Below are positions 8,474 through 22,620 of a DNA stretch of 64,000 nucleotides, piece by piece. Location of the stretch: positions 1-64,000 of the forward strand of contig CAWFSF010000001.1 in assembly GCA_963818475.1 (NCBI GenBank), written 5' to 3'. Below the pieces are notes generated by a model that saw only the letters and a program-made list of their open reading frames with translations, searched no databases and was not told the DNA's origin. This DNA is from Nitrospirota bacterium (GTDB taxonomy: Bacteria > Nitrospirota > UBA9217). The position numbers were made by a program, and so were the translations under genes. Each line of letters starts with the position of its first letter. The stretch's first letter is position 1.

Positions 8474-11400
8474 TTACTGGCCGCTGAACCACTTCACTGC
8501 GTCGCGGACCGACACCTGGTCGAACTTCATCCTGAGTTTTACGAAGGGGCCCTCTGCCGTGAACTCCGACTGGGAGAAATCGCGGTCCCGTGAAGCCGGA
8601 GAAATTGTACCCGACGCTGATCCACATGTTGCGCGCCGCCTGGAACCCGACGGAGGCGCTGCTGTCCGAAGCTCTTCTGGTTGATCTCCCAGGAATGCAG
8701 CATGCTCGCCTCGGACGCCCACATCCCAGGTCTTGGTCAGATCGTAGCGGCACTCTATCCCGGTCAGGTCGGTGTAGCCCCGATAGTCGTCCTGGTCGAT
8801 CGTTTCGGCCACGTACTTCGCTCCGTACTGGAAGGAGACCTGCATCCTGTTCTCCAGCTTGTAGTTCAAGACGAGGTTGTTGATCAGCCGCCAGTTGTCG
8901 AAGGGGAGATCGACGCCGTGCTGTTCGGCGCGGAGGTAGTCGAACCGGTCGAGGAGGATGAGGCGGGTCACTGCCGGCCGATAGGCGACAGCGAGGCGCA
9001 GGTCGCCGTTGAACTTCTCGAGGGCCGCCGGCGTCGTGGCGCGGAAGGCCTGCAGCTCCGGCGGCCAGGGCCAGGCCGTTCCTCACCTCTCCGTTGGCAC
9101 CGAACAGGACCGCCGACTTGTCCTCGCTCGCGGCCCGGCGCTGCTCGACCCGGCCGGTCCAGGACCATTTCTCCTGGCGATAAGCCGCGCCGAGGAACAC
9201 GGCGGTGAAGTCCTCGGTGCCGCCGACGCCGGGAGGCACGTTCGTGTTGAACTGGTAATATCCCGAGTCCCGGATCATGGCCGACCGGTCGACCCCCGCC
9301 GTCCAGCGCTCCATTGTTTCGTCACCTGCCAGGACTGCTTCAGGCCGGTCGTGGCGAACAGCCGGGCGCCGTTCTCGGTTGACTGCTGCTCCATGCTCGA
9401 GCTCAGCTGGCCGCCGGTCCAGGGTGAGGATTTGAGGCCCAGCCCGGGTCATGGCCGTGTCCGCCTGGGACCCGCGCGACAACTGCCTCATTGGCAAAGA
9501 GCGTCGTATCCTTGGTCAGCCGGTAATCCATGCCCACGGTCGTCCGCGTCGGGAAGTCGACATTGGTACGTGGTGCCGCTCAGGGTCTGATCGTGCTGCA
9601 GCCGGCCGGAAAGGCGGTCCGTGAACTGGTATTTCATTCCGCCGAAGACCTGCTCCGACCGCGTGGACTCGCCCGTCGTGAACGTGTCTTCGGCCCGGCG
9701 CAGTCCGCCGAACAACTCGTACTGCTGCGTCCCGTACCTGCCGCGCAGTTCGGCCATGTCGCGGACCGCGCCGGTGCCCAGGTTCTCCTGGCGGAATGCT
9801 TCGCCGGCAACGGTGAGCGGCTGGGTGATGCGGTAGTTCACCGTGGTCCCGTACTTTTTCGTGCCCGTTTCGCTTCCGTTCTGCTGCCCCAGGCCGAAGC
9901 CCGGCTCCTGTTCACGCACATAAGCACGTGCCGTCCAGCGTCTCGGAACGGTGCTGGACCTCGGCCAGGTAGGCAGAGCCGTTCGTTCCCGTGCCGCGCC
10001 ACGATCGCTCCTGGTCGAGGCCACCTCGGCCCTGACCTTCGTCGTCGGCGTTACAGCCACGGAGGCGTCCACGCCGGTCAGGTTGCCTTCGGCGCCGGGT
10101 GTGCCTTCGTGCACCTGGGTCACGCCGACCTGGACCCGGTTGTCGCAGCAGCTTCACGGCCGCCCGTCCTCCGTACGTGTAGCGCAGTGTGGCCGGTGTC
10201 GAAGGTCTCGTACTCGACCACGATGAAGACCGGGATTGAAGTTCTCGTCCCGGCTCGGCACCGGCGATTTGAAGAAGATCGTGCCCGACTCGTAGTCGAT
10301 GGTGTAGTCCAGGTTCCGCGACAGCAGCTGCTGCTTCACGATCACCTCGCTGCGGAACCGGTCGCGCGTCTCGATGGTCACGCTGCTCCGTGTTCATTAC
10401 GATGTTCCTGCGCGACAGGTGGTAGAGGCCGGAGGTGCCGTCGCCCTGCAGTTCGTCCCGGAGATGGGCCTGGTCCGTGTCCGCCGACGAACAGGTTGTA
10501 CTCATACGCGGTCGCCCTTGTACTCGGACTTGAAGCCGGTCAGGTTGCGGCTGTAGCGGGAAAGCTCGGTCACCGTCGAGCCCGGTCGAGAAGTCGCCGA
10601 AGAGAGCGTAGAACTGGTCCCGTTCGAGCTTGACGTAGATATGCTTTTCGCTCGCCGCGTCGTGGAGCTGTTCGGCCCCGTCCCCGTAGAGCAGGTAGTA
10701 CTTGTTCGGGTCCACGATCTGGTAGAGGCTCTTTCGTCCGTCCGGCGGCCGCGTGCTGTCATAGGCCGCGGTCAGCAGCCATTCGCCCTTGATCATGCCC
10801 TTTGCGTAGAAGGCGACCCGGCCGTCCCGGTACAGGTCCTCCTCCTGCCCGGCGCGCCCGCCGTTTCCATGTTGCCCTTGATCGTATTGTAGCCCCAGGT
10901 GCCTTCGGCCAGGCCGACGAGCACCCAGTCCCGGTTCTCGGGCTTGAGCCACGCCCGGATCTCCTGCGCGCCGGTCGGCAGGAGTATCCGCACGACGGCA
11001 TCGCCGGTCCGGGCGGTCGGGGCGAGCTCGATCAGCGCTATGCCGTCAGGTCCAACGTTCGTACCGGATACGGTCGGTGGCAGGCGCGGTGAGCGGCGCC
11101 TGCTGGAGCTCGGTCATGCGCTGCTGCGCCACGTGCGGCGCGTCCACGGTAAAGTCGCCCGCGATGCCCTCCCGGGCCGGGTATCCATCCTTGTCCAGGA
11201 GCCGGACAGCCAGGACGGGCGGTTTCCTGCCGTCTGCCACAAGCCGGGAGCGCTCCGGAACGAGCTCCGCCTTGACCGGATCGCCGGAATAGTGGATTAT
11301 GCGCTCGGTCCGAACCAGCTCCTTGCCGTCTCCATCGGTCAGCACCAGTTCGAACACATTGTCGCCGTCCTGCAGATGCACACCCTTCCAGATGCTGACC

Positions 11401-20300: not shown

Positions 20301-22620
20301 CCCCGGCGGGAATGGTGTCCTTGACCAGGATGCAGATCGACGTCCCGGCGTTCGCCGTGAGCGACGCCGGCAGCACGATATCGCTGCCGTCAAAGGTGCT
20401 GTTGCAGTTCACGTCCTGGTACAGGACGACCGCGGGCCAGCTGCCCTGGGTCCTGCTGGTCACGGCGAAGCTCGCCTGGCCGCCGCTGCCCGGGGTGAAC
20501 GTGTGGCCGTAATAGACCGCTGTGTTCGGAGCGCCGTTCTGGCTCAGCGGCGTCGGCGGTAAAGGTGTTGTCCGGGACATCGCCGAAGAGCACGTTCCTG
20601 TAGCCGCCCGTCGCGTTGTTGCCGTACAGCGTATAGGCAAAGGAGATGTATTCTCCGCCGATCGTGTAGGTCCCGCCGGTATTGCCGGCGTTGTAACTGA
20701 CCGAGAGATATCCTGCGCATTGGCCTCGTAGATCCGGAGCGTGGCGGTTGGTCAGTGTTCGTGAACAGAACGAAGTCGCCGCCGCTGCCCGTGGTTGTCG
20801 TATCGTAGAGTCGTAACCGCCGGTATTGTTCGCGAGCTCGCACCGTGACGCCGGCAGATGCCCGCTCTCGGCGGCGTTCAGGATGCCGTCGTTCGCATTG
20901 GCAGACGCGCCGTTGTACCCGTTGTCGTTGATCACCTTGCCTGAAATGCGGGAACCGTTGTAGACGCCGAAGTTCTGGTTCGTCAGGTTCGCGTTGGTCA
21001 CGCGACATCTGGACAGCGTGTAGTTGACCGGACTGGTGTAGATCCAGTTTGCGCTCGGGAACCCCGGCGTCGGGTTGGTGAGCGTATTGTTGTTGCTCAG
21101 GATGATCGTATAGGTATCGTAGGACGGCACGTTGTTGAAGGTGTAAGCGCCCGATGCCTGGGTGACCAGGACCGCCTGCAGCGGCCGTGGTCATGTCGCT
21201 CGACCGGAAGAGCTTGGCGTAGATGTTCGCGATGTTCGAGCTGTTCTCCCCGCCGTCGCGCGTCCCGTTATGGTTCGCGTCGCTGTAGACCGTGCCGGAG
21301 ATCGATACGGGGGCGCCGGTGACGGACGACGGTGGCTGTCGCGCTGTCGTTGGCGCTGTTGTAGTCCGTGATGCCGGCGGGCGGCGCGAGCGTCGCCGTG
21401 TTGGTGATCACGCTGCCGAGGGGCGCCGCGGCGCTCACCGTGCCCCTGATCGTGTAGCTGACGGAACCGTTGAACGGAAGGGTCGCGGTCGTATTCAGAT
21501 TTCCCGAGCCCGAAGCCGCTCCGCAGGTGCCGCCGTTCGCCCCGGCGCAGGTCCAGGTGGCGCCGGTCACGAGCGCCGGGATGGTGTCCGTGATCGGGAC
21601 GTTCGTCGCGGTCGTGTTGGCAGGACCGTAGTTGCGGGCAGTGATCGTGTACGTGATCGGTCCGCCGGCGGTGACCGAGGGGGACGAGACGACTTTCGTT
21701 ATGGCGAGATCGATGTCCGTCTGGAGCGGATCGATGACCAGGTTCCTGATCTCGTGATAGTTCGTGGACCCGCCCGTGCTTGCCGCATAGCCGATCTTGA
21801 CGGAAGCCGGGACCGGCCGGGCCACATTGAGGCCGGTGACGACCGGCGTCAGCGGCTGGTTGTACCCGAACTGCACATAGGTATCGACGCGCAGATAGTT
21901 GGGCGCCGCCACCGGCGTCAGGTAGATCACGACCTTGCGGTACTGAACGCCGGACTGCATGGGCCGGTAGAGCTGGTTGTTGAAGGCAAGCTGCTGGGCA
22001 AGAGTGCCCGAGCCCCCAAGCCAGTAGTATGCACCCGGAGGGATGGTTGTAGGGACCGCTGCACGCCGACCTCGTTCGCCTGCTGCCCGGGTCCGCCCAG
22101 ACGGCCTTCGTACGGATTCGAATAGTTCCCGTACTCGTCGATGCCGACGCCGATATAGCCGCCGGTCAATCCCACGTCATCGTCGATCCAGCCGAGCTGC
22201 CACAGTACTTCTGTGCATAGCCGAGCGACCCGCCCGAAGCGCCGGCCGAGAAGGTGGTTGCGTCGTAGGACCCGTCGAACAGGAAGATGCTGTAACCGTC
22301 GGCGCCGTTCCCGCCCCAGGTCGCGTAGTCGAACTGGATGACCACGCCCTGGGAAATGTCGAAGGGCGAGTCGAAGAAGGCGAACCCGGCCTGGTCGTTC
22401 AGGGGTTCGGTCAGGCGCAGCCAGCCGTTGCCTGGCCGGATCGACGCCGGTGCTGGCGGACAGATAGGCACTTCCGCCGATGACCCATCCCGGCGCGGTC
22501 GAACCCGTCATCGGCTCGTTCACGATGGCGGCGCATGCGTGCGCCGGAGAACACCGTCACGGCAGCGAGAAGAACGCACGGCAGGATGAATGCGGCGGGT
22601 ATGTGGGATATTCTTTTCAT
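17342..22620 (-). CDS. ~1750-aa secreted adhesin: L-type lectin-like domain, DUF11, two SdrD-B-like-containing repeats, DUF11, C-terminal DUF11 (multiple frameshifts)
   Basis: Signal peptide; [23 protein letters not shown] and [17 protein letters not shown] (lectin); [47 protein letters not shown]; final [28 protein letters not shown]. Confidence 0.8.
19060..21320 (-). repeat. Two-copy intragenic repeat, period ~1.13 kb
   Basis: [15 protein letters not shown]-encoding block at ~19140 and ~20270; IYAKLFRSS-encoding block at ~20075 and ~21210. Confidence 0.85.

Follow-up and report, generated by a model that had tools for sequence, protein, structure and literature searches.

Five neighboring genes lie on the minus strand between positions 22620 and 8474 of the window (the whole 64,000-nucleotide stretch of DNA that was analyzed), as mapped from ORF fragments and motif positions. 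Read 5′ to 3′, they encode an adhesin, pilin A, a small DUF11 protein, pilin B, and an OmpA/beta-barrel protein of ∼2000 residues:

17342..22620, minus strand, adhesin of ∼1760 residues, at least 10 frame changes (ORF fragments; tblastn against the intact adhesins of relatives G004 and G007)
16314..17345, minus strand, pilin A, one frameshift (ORF fragments; tblastn)
15799..16297, minus strand, small secreted DUF11 protein of ∼165 residues, one frameshift, acceptor-only (ORFs, profile, motifs)
14536..15619, minus strand, pilin B, 4-5 frame changes, architecture as in pilin A (ORF fragments; tblastn)
8474..14409, minus strand, outer-membrane (OM) protein and putative anchor, ∼1980 residues, at least 6 frame changes (ORFs, profiles, tblastn, models)

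All five proteins carry Sec signal peptides of the ordinary type. Alignment with intact relatives by tblastn showed that frame changes recur in all five genes, and because the adenylate kinase (7633-8352) and phosphoglycerate kinase (62556-63788) genes are similarly garbled, we read these frameshifts as assembly errors and not as gene decay. A previous sequence-only reading had described four of the genes and a set of motifs; all of the motifs that it quoted were located in the window, on the minus strand, and its four genes stand, but the fifth conserved gene (16297-15799) was not discussed there.

The adhesin starts at position 22620 with a signal peptide (MKRISHIP...); a head that is variable comes next, then a run of repeated Ig-like modules, and the acceptor domain forms the C terminus. 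Its features, with motifs placed by position, are as follows:

22214..22444, minus strand, possible lectin-like head (PF18483, E 1.3e-4, 22.3 bits against a cut-off of 78.3)
21328..21711, minus strand, complete internal DUF11/CLIPPER domain (PF01345, E 1.8e-17, profile positions 1-114 of 114)
21711-21694, minus strand, Lys strand DLAITK of the internal domain
21597-21577, minus strand, Asp motif PITDTIP of the internal domain
21411-21388, minus strand, Asn strand VITNTATL of the internal domain
17345..17800, minus strand, C-terminal acceptor domain of DUF11-like fold without the Asn strand (motifs, profile match)
17800-17780, minus strand, Lys motif NIVMVKS of the acceptor
17665-17642, minus strand, Asp motif VVVSDPVP of the acceptor
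17362-17345, minus strand, end of the acceptor, FEVKVK, with the stop codon directly after it

The lectin head proposed earlier does have a PF18483 match, but a weak one below the threshold, and the head domains vary among loci, with a G8 domain in relative G014. The complete internal domain runs on through its Asn strand. By comparison, the acceptor domain matches DUF11 profile positions 4-84 of 114, and all acceptor domains share one end column, just before that strand. Across loci, the adhesin acceptor keeps its Lys in 32/32 copies and its Asp in 30/32, and 31/32 terminate at the end of the model. No conserved Asn strand was found upstream of the acceptor among the adhesins compared across loci, the upstream domains being variable, and the N-terminal donor motif described below for the pilins and OM protein is absent from the adhesin. 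With the Lys and Asp retained and no conserved Asn strand of its own, the adhesin is acceptor-only, as the sequence-only reading had it. The chemistry of CLIPPER domains is known experimentally from PDB 9IFR, where Lys715, Asp748, and Asn806 lie in a DUF11 domain (PMC12617251).

Pilins A and B each consist of an N-terminal donor strand, a middle Ig-like domain, and a truncated DUF11 acceptor domain, with the following motif positions:

17211..17243, minus strand, pilin A donor strand SGTVITNTATV, with Asn
16640-16620, minus strand, pilin A Lys motif VVTVNKA
16515-16492, minus strand, pilin A Asp motif LVITDPVP
16334-16317, minus strand, pilin A end, FDVRIN then stop
15491..15523, minus strand, pilin B donor strand SGTVISNTATV
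14914-14894, minus strand, pilin B Lys motif AVTVGKT
14773-14753, minus strand, pilin B Asp motif VSITDNL
14556-14539, minus strand, pilin B end, YQVVIQ then stop

The start of pilin A overlaps the adhesin stop codon by 4 nt. In both pilins the C-terminal domain has the Lys and the Asp and ends before the Asn strand, while the missing strand forms the mature N terminus of pilin A, pilin B, and the OM protein, in agreement with the motif reading. The donor motif stands a fixed 5-7 residues past the predicted signal peptide cut (cleavage site judged by eye). When 112 pilins were pooled, the Asn was present in 105, the Lys in 108 (with 3 further Lys shifted by one column, judged by eye), and the Asp in 111; 107 ended at the common column, and Thr3 was nearly invariant (109/112). 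A profile search of the pilins gave no match to PF12389 (TasA/camelysin).

Conservation of the Asn and Lys had also been expected, and this held for pilin B (N 46/47, K 47/47, D 47/47) but not fully for A-type pilins, in which the Asn is variable (N 31/42, K 41/42, D 42/42). Of the eleven A pilins counted without Asn, one (L038) has a cut N terminus; the other ten, from 41 aligned copies, kept the Lys in 9/10 and the Asp in 10/10. The retained residues would fit a Lys and Asp that serve the Asn of another chain. Since the adhesin keeps its Lys and Asp in the loci whose pilin A lacks Asn, not every joint can be covalent, and any order of parts in the fiber is tentative; this counts against the chain proposed below.

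The OM protein comprises a signal peptide, the donor strand, an Ig-like stalk with one complete DUF11 domain, an OmpA-like domain, two beta-sandwich domains, and a large beta-barrel:

14274..14316, minus strand, donor strand, PAGTVIS (14316-14296) and NVATATF (14294-14274) with a frameshift between them (motif positions)
11770..11928 (about), minus strand, C-terminal part of an OmpA-like peptidoglycan-binding domain (PF00691, E 3e-8)
8474..10160, minus strand, predicted barrel region of ∼30 strands, approximate boundary transferred from the G014 model by alignment
8545-8516, minus strand, beta-barrel-type C terminus (sequence)

The full OmpA-like domain of relative G014 matches at E 5.7e-16. 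In the AlphaFold2 model of residues 940-2024 of the G014 protein, positions 505-1068 of the fragment form ∼30 long strands in antiparallel arrangement, and Foldseek searches with this barrel returned large barrels only. The donor Asn of the OM protein is present in 52/54 loci. Since the protein's sole DUF11 domain is complete, with its own Lys, Asp, and Asn, the N-terminal strand finds no acceptor within its own chain, which bears out its description as donor-only.

The small protein ends in ...SFRARVK followed by the stop codon and has an Asn at the catalytic Asp position (AITNPIA), a replacement seen in 43/48 small proteins across loci. It lies between pilins A and B in all of the relatives' loci (11/11, one of which is a second locus in the window's own genome), or after the adhesin where there is no A gene. 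It might accept a donor strand and, without the catalytic Asp, be unable to lock it, so that its role could be to hold or cap donor strands in the periplasm, the least secure part of our proposal.

Among the relatives, 11 loci that are intact or nearly so repeat the motif pattern, as do 80 loci from other phyla, and judged from the sequences it is far beyond chance. The residue counts per protein given above as across loci come from these 80. Intact copies of the genes extend over at least 8 phyla; by database labels the carriers are Nitrospirota, Deltaproteobacteria (Geobacter, Desulfuromonadales, and Desulfobacterales), Gamma-, Beta-, and Zetaproteobacteria, Lentisphaeria, Verrucomicrobiota, and Krumholzibacteriota. 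The order pilin A, small protein, pilin B, OM protein was seen in 41/80 loci, most of the remaining 39 being interrupted by contig ends. Restricting the count to the 45 loci that extend 5 kb or more on the upstream side of the OM gene gave 43 with B, 44 with the small protein, 38 with A, and 30 in which an adhesin C-terminal domain was within reach. Gene order and motif polarity, with the residues on the expected proteins, are thus conserved across genomes, as predicted beforehand.

In ESMFold2 predictions of the adhesin C-terminal domain with full mature pilin B, the N-terminal 40 residues of the pilin were placed in the adhesin domain, even though the pilin's own acceptor was present. The ipSAE was 0.87 (runs 0.88, 0.87, and 0.87; best of 3 controls, 0.00), a pass that may reflect likeness to complete DUF11 folds seen by the model and that was obtained with our own alignments; the tool's mark is reached by 58/80 solved complexes and 2/110 mismatched pairs. 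The runs shared at least 97% of contacts, the partner pLDDT was 93, and the interface comprised pilin residues 1-40 against adhesin residues 22-31 (with K29), 43-58, and 64-76 (with D73). In P0035, a tandem fusion that occurs naturally, 5 residues connect the last strand of one unit with the donor of the following one, a spacing that matches a hairpin loop; no other fused forms were found.

Taken together, the residues, the truncation point, and the complex prediction support the polar chain first suggested from the motifs, with an acceptor-only adhesin, pilins that are both acceptor and donor, and a donor-only OM protein. We consider it probable that these form a head-to-tail, donor-strand-complemented fiber running from the adhesin through the pilins to a peptidoglycan-tied anchor. 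The acceptors of the adhesin, A, and B would be C-terminal CLIPPER domains with the first-strand Lys and the catalytic Asp, cut before the Asn strand, and the donors would be the first ∼37 mature residues of A, B, and the OM protein, which supply the missing Asn strand and the final strand and pass directly into the domain that follows, the arrangement of a continuous stalk of tandem DUF11 domains. A donor entering the acceptor of the preceding protein would build a whole CLIPPER domain from two chains and set its Asn beside the Lys and Asp, whereupon a spontaneous Lys-Asn isopeptide, on the principle of SpyTag/SpyCatcher and of the BsaA "exchange and lock," would lock the joint; from the residue pattern, such crosslinks are probably present. 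Being acceptor-only, the adhesin would sit at the distal tip. Pilin B, with all three residues conserved, is the likely repeating shaft subunit, and pilin A, absent from some loci and variable in its Asn, may be an adaptor. The donor-only OM protein would be terminator and anchor, its OmpA-like domain gripping peptidoglycan and its ∼30-strand barrel lying in the outer membrane. The number of B copies per fiber, surface exposure, and the barrel as export channel are points that we infer. An OmpA-like domain would be expected in the periplasm, but here it sits between the N-terminal stalk and the barrel, which counts against our explanation.

The same parts could instead make a split stalk of defined length, in which inter-chain complementation joins a single copy each of the adhesin, A, B, and the anchor, and B does not polymerize with itself. 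The fixed gene order and the single gene per type in most loci would suit such a stalk, and a single-chain fibrillar adhesin with a CLIPPER stalk and OmpA-like anchor is described in Acinetobacter silvestris (B9T28_05395; PMC12617251). We nevertheless think it unlikely: B alone keeps all three residues almost always, as a self-polymerizing unit must, and the number of parts is not fixed, since A is absent from 5/43 loci having B and at least 5 kb upstream, and one relative has three pilin genes. Moreover, A, B, and the OM protein have closely similar donor strands, so strict one-to-one specificity is not obvious.

Considerably less probable is that the N-terminal strand of A and B completes its own C-terminal domain with an internal isopeptide, leaving unlinked surface or periplasmic proteins. 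The AlphaFold2 monomer of mature pilin B (pLDDT 96.7, pTM 0.85) has an ordered N terminus (first 10 residues at pLDDT 93, strand at 8-11) that, in this model, probably fills the pilin's own groove, and nested isopeptide domains with a large insert between the bonded residues are known from the Gram-positive pilins RrgA and Spy0125 (PMC12617251). Closed monomers would, however, leave the adhesin domain with a conserved Lys and Asp and no Asn, the small protein incomplete, and the OM donor without an acceptor; A pilins without Asn still have the Lys and Asp, and the ESMFold2 complex puts the strand in the other chain despite the pilin's own groove being on offer. A reading of the motif as an export or docking signal recognized by the large OM protein, and not as a structural strand, could draw on its fixed distance from the cleavage site in three operon proteins and on the near-invariant Thr3, but it is very improbable, given that the motif equals the last two DUF11 strands residue for residue, that the adhesin, which also needs export, lacks it, and that the OM protein carries it itself.

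The probable polar fiber does not need an usher, PapD, or sortase. None of the three was found in the window's own genome, and sortase was absent from 6/6 genomes searched (the window's own and 5 carrier relatives), consistent with the earlier description of the pilus as sortase-free. The parallel claim that usher and PapD are lacking stands for the locus, the window's genome, and 3/5 relatives, but both occur in the other 2/5, on contigs other than that of the locus. If the proposal is true, this would be a self-contained surface fiber of a diderm, assembled by bringing together the parts of a split domain that are carried on different proteins; our literature search found no description of such pilus building in two-membrane bacteria.

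Several known systems share parts of this design. Type V pili of Bacteroidia combine strand exchange between subunits with a two-membrane cell and an outer-membrane anchor subunit that ends the fiber. Their pilins are lipoproteins, a protease first removes a strand, and the donor is C-terminal, none of which is seen in the sequences of the present proteins; we know of no isopeptide lock between Type V subunits. SpyTag/SpyCatcher is an engineered split CnaB2 domain whose strand and remainder reconstitute and ligate spontaneously through a Lys-Asp bond; it is man-made and of CnaB fold, whereas the joint proposed here would be its naturally occurring counterpart, with a CnaA-like fold. In chaperone-usher pili (type 1 and P pili), Ig-fold subunits lack their last strand and the N-terminal extension of one subunit fills the preceding one. 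As proposed here, a donor-less adhesin stands at the tip and a terminator at the base, in a two-membrane cell (PMC13721041). The present locus differs in having no PapD-like chaperone or PapC-like usher, two domains per subunit, joints that are probably covalent, and a 2000-residue anchor with its own barrel.

Head-to-tail threads with N-terminal donor strands and covalent subunit links are also made by Sulfolobus acidocaldarius, for which no assembly machine is known (PMC9715654). The host is an archaeon with no outer membrane, the fold is type 1 pilin-like, and the bond links Asp24, by its N-terminal amine, with Asn57 of subunit n+2, in contrast to a Lys-Asn bond in a rebuilt domain (PMC9715654). 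In BsaA of Clostridium perfringens, a TasA family member, an N-terminal strand joins the beta-sheet of the next subunit and a spontaneous Asn-Lys isopeptide with an acidic catalyst forms without sortase, the bond proposed here; mutants back it in BsaA (10.1101/2024.11.04.621531), and here it is predicted from sequence. BsaA, however, has the TasA/camelysin fold in place of DUF11 and a Gram-positive host with SipW signal peptidase, and it has neither an outer-membrane anchor nor subunits dedicated to being acceptor-only or donor-only (10.1101/2024.11.04.621531). The domain family and the Lys/Asp/Asn triad are shared with the CLIPPER (DUF11) fibrillar adhesins, whose model protein likewise combines a CLIPPER stalk with an adhesive head and with an anchor that is OmpA-like, but as described there the stalk is a single polypeptide and the bond forms within one chain (PMC12617251). 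In the present locus, complete CLIPPER copies are found inside the adhesin and the OM protein. The stalk itself is divided among separate genes, with the break falling within a domain, at the loop that leads into the Asn strand.

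The GC-rich region (0.63-0.68) between 8474 and 22620 is filled by five genes on the minus strand, listed here with the frame changes seen against intact relatives.

22620-17342, minus strand: adhesin (at least 10 frame changes)
17345-16314, minus strand: pilin A (1 frame change)
16297-15799, minus strand: small DUF11 protein
15619-14536, minus strand: pilin B (4-5 frame changes)
14409-8474, minus strand: outer-membrane (OM) protein (at least 6 frame changes)

Frames are also disrupted in housekeeping genes, namely those for adenylate kinase (7633-8352) and phosphoglycerate kinase (62556-63788), and because these genes of the window are garbled likewise, we took the frameshifts across the locus to be assembly errors. 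Intact orthologues were used for the analysis, and the window sequence was left unrepaired. By eye, frameshifts are denser in the GC-rich parts of the window. The lower-GC part at 40-56 kb holds long intact open reading frames, such as those for a 404-amino-acid (aa) tyrosyl-tRNA synthetase and a 956-aa sensor kinase, and its GC content (positions 40000-56000) is 0.49-0.53, with a steadily negative GC skew, compared to 0.60-0.68 over the first 40 kb. The adhesin itself carries a tandem duplication within its stalk (~21200-19000, module of ~1.1 kb), and segments of intact adhesins (e.g., residues ~470-730 and ~1040-1350 of the relative G004) each match two successive places in the window adhesin. 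Directly upstream of the adhesin, at 22763-24735 (minus strand) and from 24741 onward (plus strand), the translations suggest a small receiver resembling CheY, an apparently NtrC-type (sigma-54 dependent) response regulator, and a membrane sensor; in several loci of relatives (L019, L024, L025, L026, and L027), similar regulators adjoin the cassette. The sigma-54 promoter consensus had five matches in the window, no more than expected by chance, and none of them lies close to the locus.

The sequence-only reading had proposed that these proteins form a polar chain in which the N-terminal strand of one subunit completes a truncated C-terminal domain of its neighbor, and every motif that it quoted was found at its position in the window. 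In a complete DUF11 domain, the strands follow one another as Lys strand (DLAITK), Asp strand (ITDTIP), late strand (SYTIRGTV), a short loop, the Asn strand (VITNTATL), and a last strand, after which the next domain starts. The terminal domains of the adhesin and of pilins A and B cover positions 4-84 of the 114 in the DUF11 profile and end at the strand preceding the Asn strand (...IKYQVTIN, then stop). They thus have Lys and Asp in the chain and the Asn strand on another chain, so that the triad is not found within one chain, whereas internal DUF11 domains do hold Lys, Asp, and Asn within a single domain. The mature N-termini of pilins A and B and of the OM protein read A-G-T-x-A-G-T-x-I-x-N-x-A-x-V-x-Y, followed by a second strand and then immediately by the first strand of the next domain. 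This donor N-terminus is exactly what comes after the cut point when a DUF11 domain is uninterrupted. The proteins end in ...F.V.V(N/Q/K) and have neither an LPXTG motif nor a membrane anchor. Their signal peptides, judged by eye, end in Ala-x-Ala without a lipobox Cys, and the donor strand is N-terminal, unlike in type V pili.

Profile searches gave a consistent picture of the domain content. An internal adhesin domain is a complete DUF11 (Pfam PF01345, E 1.8e-17), and the same family was matched in the OM protein (E 2.2e-11) and in the small proteins (E 1.9e-8 to 2.5e-11). In the terminal domains of the window proteins, Pfam found only partial DUF11 matches; the pilin C-terminal domains straddle the PF01345 cut-off (29.6, 21.1, and 18.0 bits versus 24.6), and TIGR01451 scores exceeded the cut-off of that model. 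A porin-like C-terminus was also found. The lectin head that had been proposed for the adhesin did have a Pfam match, albeit a weak one below threshold. The pilins matched DUF11 only, with no match to the TasA/camelysin fold (PF12389), and the one PF12389 match in a small protein was at chance level (E 0.0085). A sequence search of the PDB returned no solved relative for the pilins and only chance matches for the small protein. Foldseek matched the pilin model to generic tandem-Ig structures (integrin legs, PrgB, and AgI/II; TM ~0.3), matches that do not discriminate between a pilin completing itself and one completing another chain, and in the ESM Atlas the small protein fell only into clusters that are unnamed or called "conserved repeat domain".

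We then turned to conservation. A library search with the pilins yielded 2212 relatives at E <= 0.001 and 207 at E <= 1e-30, from which 112 pilins were aligned. The donor Asn is present in 105, the Asp in 111, and the Lys in 108 (in 3 more, by eye, one column off), and 107 of the 112 end at the same column; no stretch of 7-10 columns is conserved. Near the mature N-terminus, almost all sequences have Thr at position 3 (109/112) and most have Gly at position 2 (90/112), both lying only 2-3 residues past the predicted signal-peptidase cut (a site judged by eye). A donor Asn and an acceptor Lys with an acidic catalyst are thus conserved, as in the exchange-and-lock mechanism of TasA/BsaA, the catalyst here being Asp.

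Among 41 genomes searched (the window's own and 40 related ones), a pilin was found in 12, all within the window's own family. Eleven loci, including a paralogous locus of the window's own genome, have the same gene order and intact proteins, with an adhesin of 620-1945 aa, pilin A of ~345-375 aa, a small protein of ~165 aa, pilin B of ~360-430 aa, and an OM protein of ~1985-2026 aa. The small protein is present in all 11, either between the two pilins or, in loci that lack pilin A, following the adhesin. The second whole cassette of the window's genome (L024, contig C2, ~293,000-306,600) encodes an adhesin of 1389 aa with a different head, and it has frameshifts in its pilin A and OM protein.

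Over 1300 relatives of the OM protein were found in the protein collection, named only "OmpA family protein" or "uncharacterized repeat protein (TIGR01451 family)". Scanning one genome per species with an alignment of OM proteins located at least 559 places with a relative. According to the record titles, these belong to Nitrospirota, Deltaproteobacteria (Geobacter, Desulfuromonadales, and Desulfobacterales), Gamma-, Beta-, and Zetaproteobacteria, Lentisphaeria, Verrucomicrobiota, and Krumholzibacteriota; Geomobilimonas luticola JCM 17780 and Povalibacter uvarum DSM 26723 are cultured carriers among the matches listed. One relative (L092, 48% identity) lies on a 5655-base contig titled as a Halobacteria archaeon metagenome-assembled genome; this contig is probably bacterial and mis-binned.

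Profile models of the five parts were mapped onto 80 fetched loci. The order pilin A, small protein, pilin B, OM protein was found in 41 of the 80, and most of the others are cut by contig ends. Forty-five loci include 5 kb or more of sequence upstream of the OM gene, and of these, 43 have pilin B, 44 the small protein, 38 pilin A, and 30 an adhesin C-terminal domain; the position of the adhesin gene varies, being upstream of, divergent from, or downstream of the OM gene. Two loci on the chromosome of Desulfosarcina alkanivorans PL12 (L050 and L096) have no pilin B by the pilin model despite ample upstream sequence. L096 keeps the small protein, and a 2.7-kb gap without an assigned gene, which may hold a divergent pilin, precedes its OM gene.

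Residues of the split domain in the five parts of the system, counted over the mapped loci
Pilin B: donor Asn 46/47; Lys 47/47; Asp 47/47
OM protein: donor Asn 52/54
Adhesin: Lys 32/32; Asp 30/32; model end coincides with protein end in 31/32
Pilin A: donor Asn 31/42; Lys 41/42; Asp 42/42
Small protein: Lys 17/48; Asp 4/48 (Asn at that position in 43/48)

By these counts, the residues sit where the chain model requires them. The gene order and motif polarity that had been predicted to persist across genomes were thus borne out, as was the conservation of Asn and Lys in homologs, which is weaker for the Asn of pilin A. The counts would allow the adhesin to be complemented by pilin B, and likewise the donor of pilin A to pair with the small protein, both of which lack part of the triad.

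The donor strand might instead fold back into its own pilin, giving a closed monomer. AlphaFold2 modeled mature pilin B as a monomer with very high confidence (pLDDT 96.7, pTM 0.85) and with an ordered N-terminus, as expected for fold-back, and nested isopeptide domains are described for Gram-positive pilins in the account given in PMC12617251. The remaining parts of the system fit such closure poorly. Across the adhesins, no Asn strand is conserved upstream of the acceptor, and the domains there vary from locus to locus, yet the Lys and Asp are kept; the small protein is likewise an acceptor without a donor. Conversely, the only DUF11 domain of the OM protein is a complete one that carries Lys, Asp, and Asn itself, which leaves the donor strand of this protein without a place in the same chain. 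Ten aligned A-pilins without the Asn still keep the Lys (9/10) and the Asp (10/10), the eleventh, from locus L038, being cut at its N-terminus. We also observed a natural protein (P0035, 696 aa) in which two pilin units are fused in tandem without an intervening signal peptide, and in which only five residues separate the last strand of unit 1 from the donor of unit 2. This lone example, the sole member of its cluster and present on two contigs, makes a thin argument, and a search for longer fused forms gave one weak match only.

Joining between chains was further examined by complex prediction with ESMFold2, in which the C-terminal domain of the adhesin was offered the whole mature pilin B, with the pilin's own groove included. 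Residues 1-40 of the pilin were modeled in the adhesin's domain, against residues 22-31 (with the Lys), 43-58, and 64-76 (with the Asp), with an ipSAE of 0.87, where the best of three controls reached 0.00; the runs shared at least 97% of contacts, and the partner pLDDT was 93. In calibration, the mark was met by 58 of 80 solved complexes and 2 of 110 mismatched pairs, counts that apply only roughly here because we supplied our own alignments. The pass may also be partly owed to likeness with complete DUF11 folds. The prediction supports, and does not demonstrate, that the adhesin acceptor binds the pilin B donor; by prediction, then, an incomplete Ig fold is filled by the N-terminal strand of the next subunit. 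On the question of fold-back, the ordered N-terminus of the monomer model speaks for closure, and the patterns in the adhesin, OM protein, small protein, and A-pilins, together with the complex, speak for joining between chains.

At the base of such a chain would stand the OM protein, whose Ig-like stalk of ~800 residues begins with the donor strand and precedes an OmpA-like domain (PF00691; E 5.7e-16 in the intact relative G014, E 3e-8 in the window fragment). About one-sixth of the best 120 OM-protein relatives lack a match to PF00691, many of them being shorter proteins (~1610-1950 aa). AlphaFold2 modeled the C-terminal 1085 residues of an intact OM protein (mean pLDDT 73.8) as two beta-sandwich domains and a poorly predicted stretch, followed by ~30 long antiparallel strands, a predicted large barrel. 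Its nearest solved folds in Foldseek were SprA of the type 9 translocon, LptD, and Deinococcus SlpA, and with a TM of only ~0.2 the match says no more than "large barrel". The ~30 strands of the predicted barrel do not fit a classical autotransporter, with its 12-strand C-terminal barrel and N-terminal passenger. A barrel of this predicted size could be large enough to pass folded Ig domains, and the stalk could run through it to the surface while the OmpA-like domain stays on the peptidoglycan.

The absence of PapC/PapD noted by the sequence-only reading holds for the window's own genome (91% complete), which has no match to the usher (PF00577) or to the PapD-type chaperone (PF00345). Five relatives that carry the cassette were also searched: two have an usher-PapD pair, adjacent to each other and on contigs other than that of the cassette, and three have none, including genomes that are 100% and 98% complete. 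No sortase (PF04203) was detected in the window's genome or in these five relatives, in agreement with the description of the pilus as sortase-free.

The polar-chain model of the sequence-only reading is in our judgment the best reading. Head-to-tail joining of the proteins through interchain donor strands, anchored by the OM protein, is in our view probable, and we hold with slightly less assurance that the joints are covalent. Whether pilin B repeats to give a long pilus or the parts form a stalk of fixed length is close to an even call. A tentative reading, which we think rather unlikely as a whole, is that of a new class of bacterial pilus. Its subunits would self-ligate by completing a split CLIPPER domain (the new name of DUF11), as a natural SpyTag/SpyCatcher. 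Its OM protein would combine an export channel (the ~30-strand barrel), a terminator and covalent anchor (the N-terminal donor), and a peptidoglycan tether (the OmpA-like domain), and a catalytically dead small acceptor would retain donor strands, unlocked, in the periplasm, which reverses the PapD principle. It would operate without chaperone-usher, sortase, type IV, or type V machinery, in hundreds of environmental species of at least eight phyla.

The literature searched, limited to one library, held no account of this system, which is wide and unnamed: the anchor protein occurs in more than 550 species genomes, and the pilin family comprises 207 representative clusters (E <= 1e-30). If confirmed, it would add a route of pilus building in two-membrane bacteria, the first there with self-made covalent joints, and would explain force-resistant fibers without sortases in these bacteria. 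Protein engineers would gain natural, mutually similar tag/catcher pairs with the order built in (acceptor-only, donor plus acceptor, donor-only, and non-locking acceptor). How folded, crosslinking subunits cross the outer membrane without a known usher becomes testable through the cultured carriers.

Parts of this scheme have precedents. A Lys-Asp-Asn bond within one chain has been solved for the CLIPPER domain (9IFR), and the model adhesin in the same account is a single chain of head, CLIPPER stalk, and OmpA-like anchor (PMC12617251). BsaA of Clostridium perfringens is described as forming fibers by donor-strand exchange followed by an Asn-Lys lock, with support from mutants (bioRxiv 10.1101/2024.11.04.621531), and Sulfolobus threads as combining donor strands with a different covalent link (PMC9715654). 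The principle of assembly is thus already known from BsaA and the archaeal threads. Compared to these, what is new here is the fold, the two-membrane envelope, the dedicated acceptor-only and donor-only parts, the small acceptor that would not lock, and the giant anchor.
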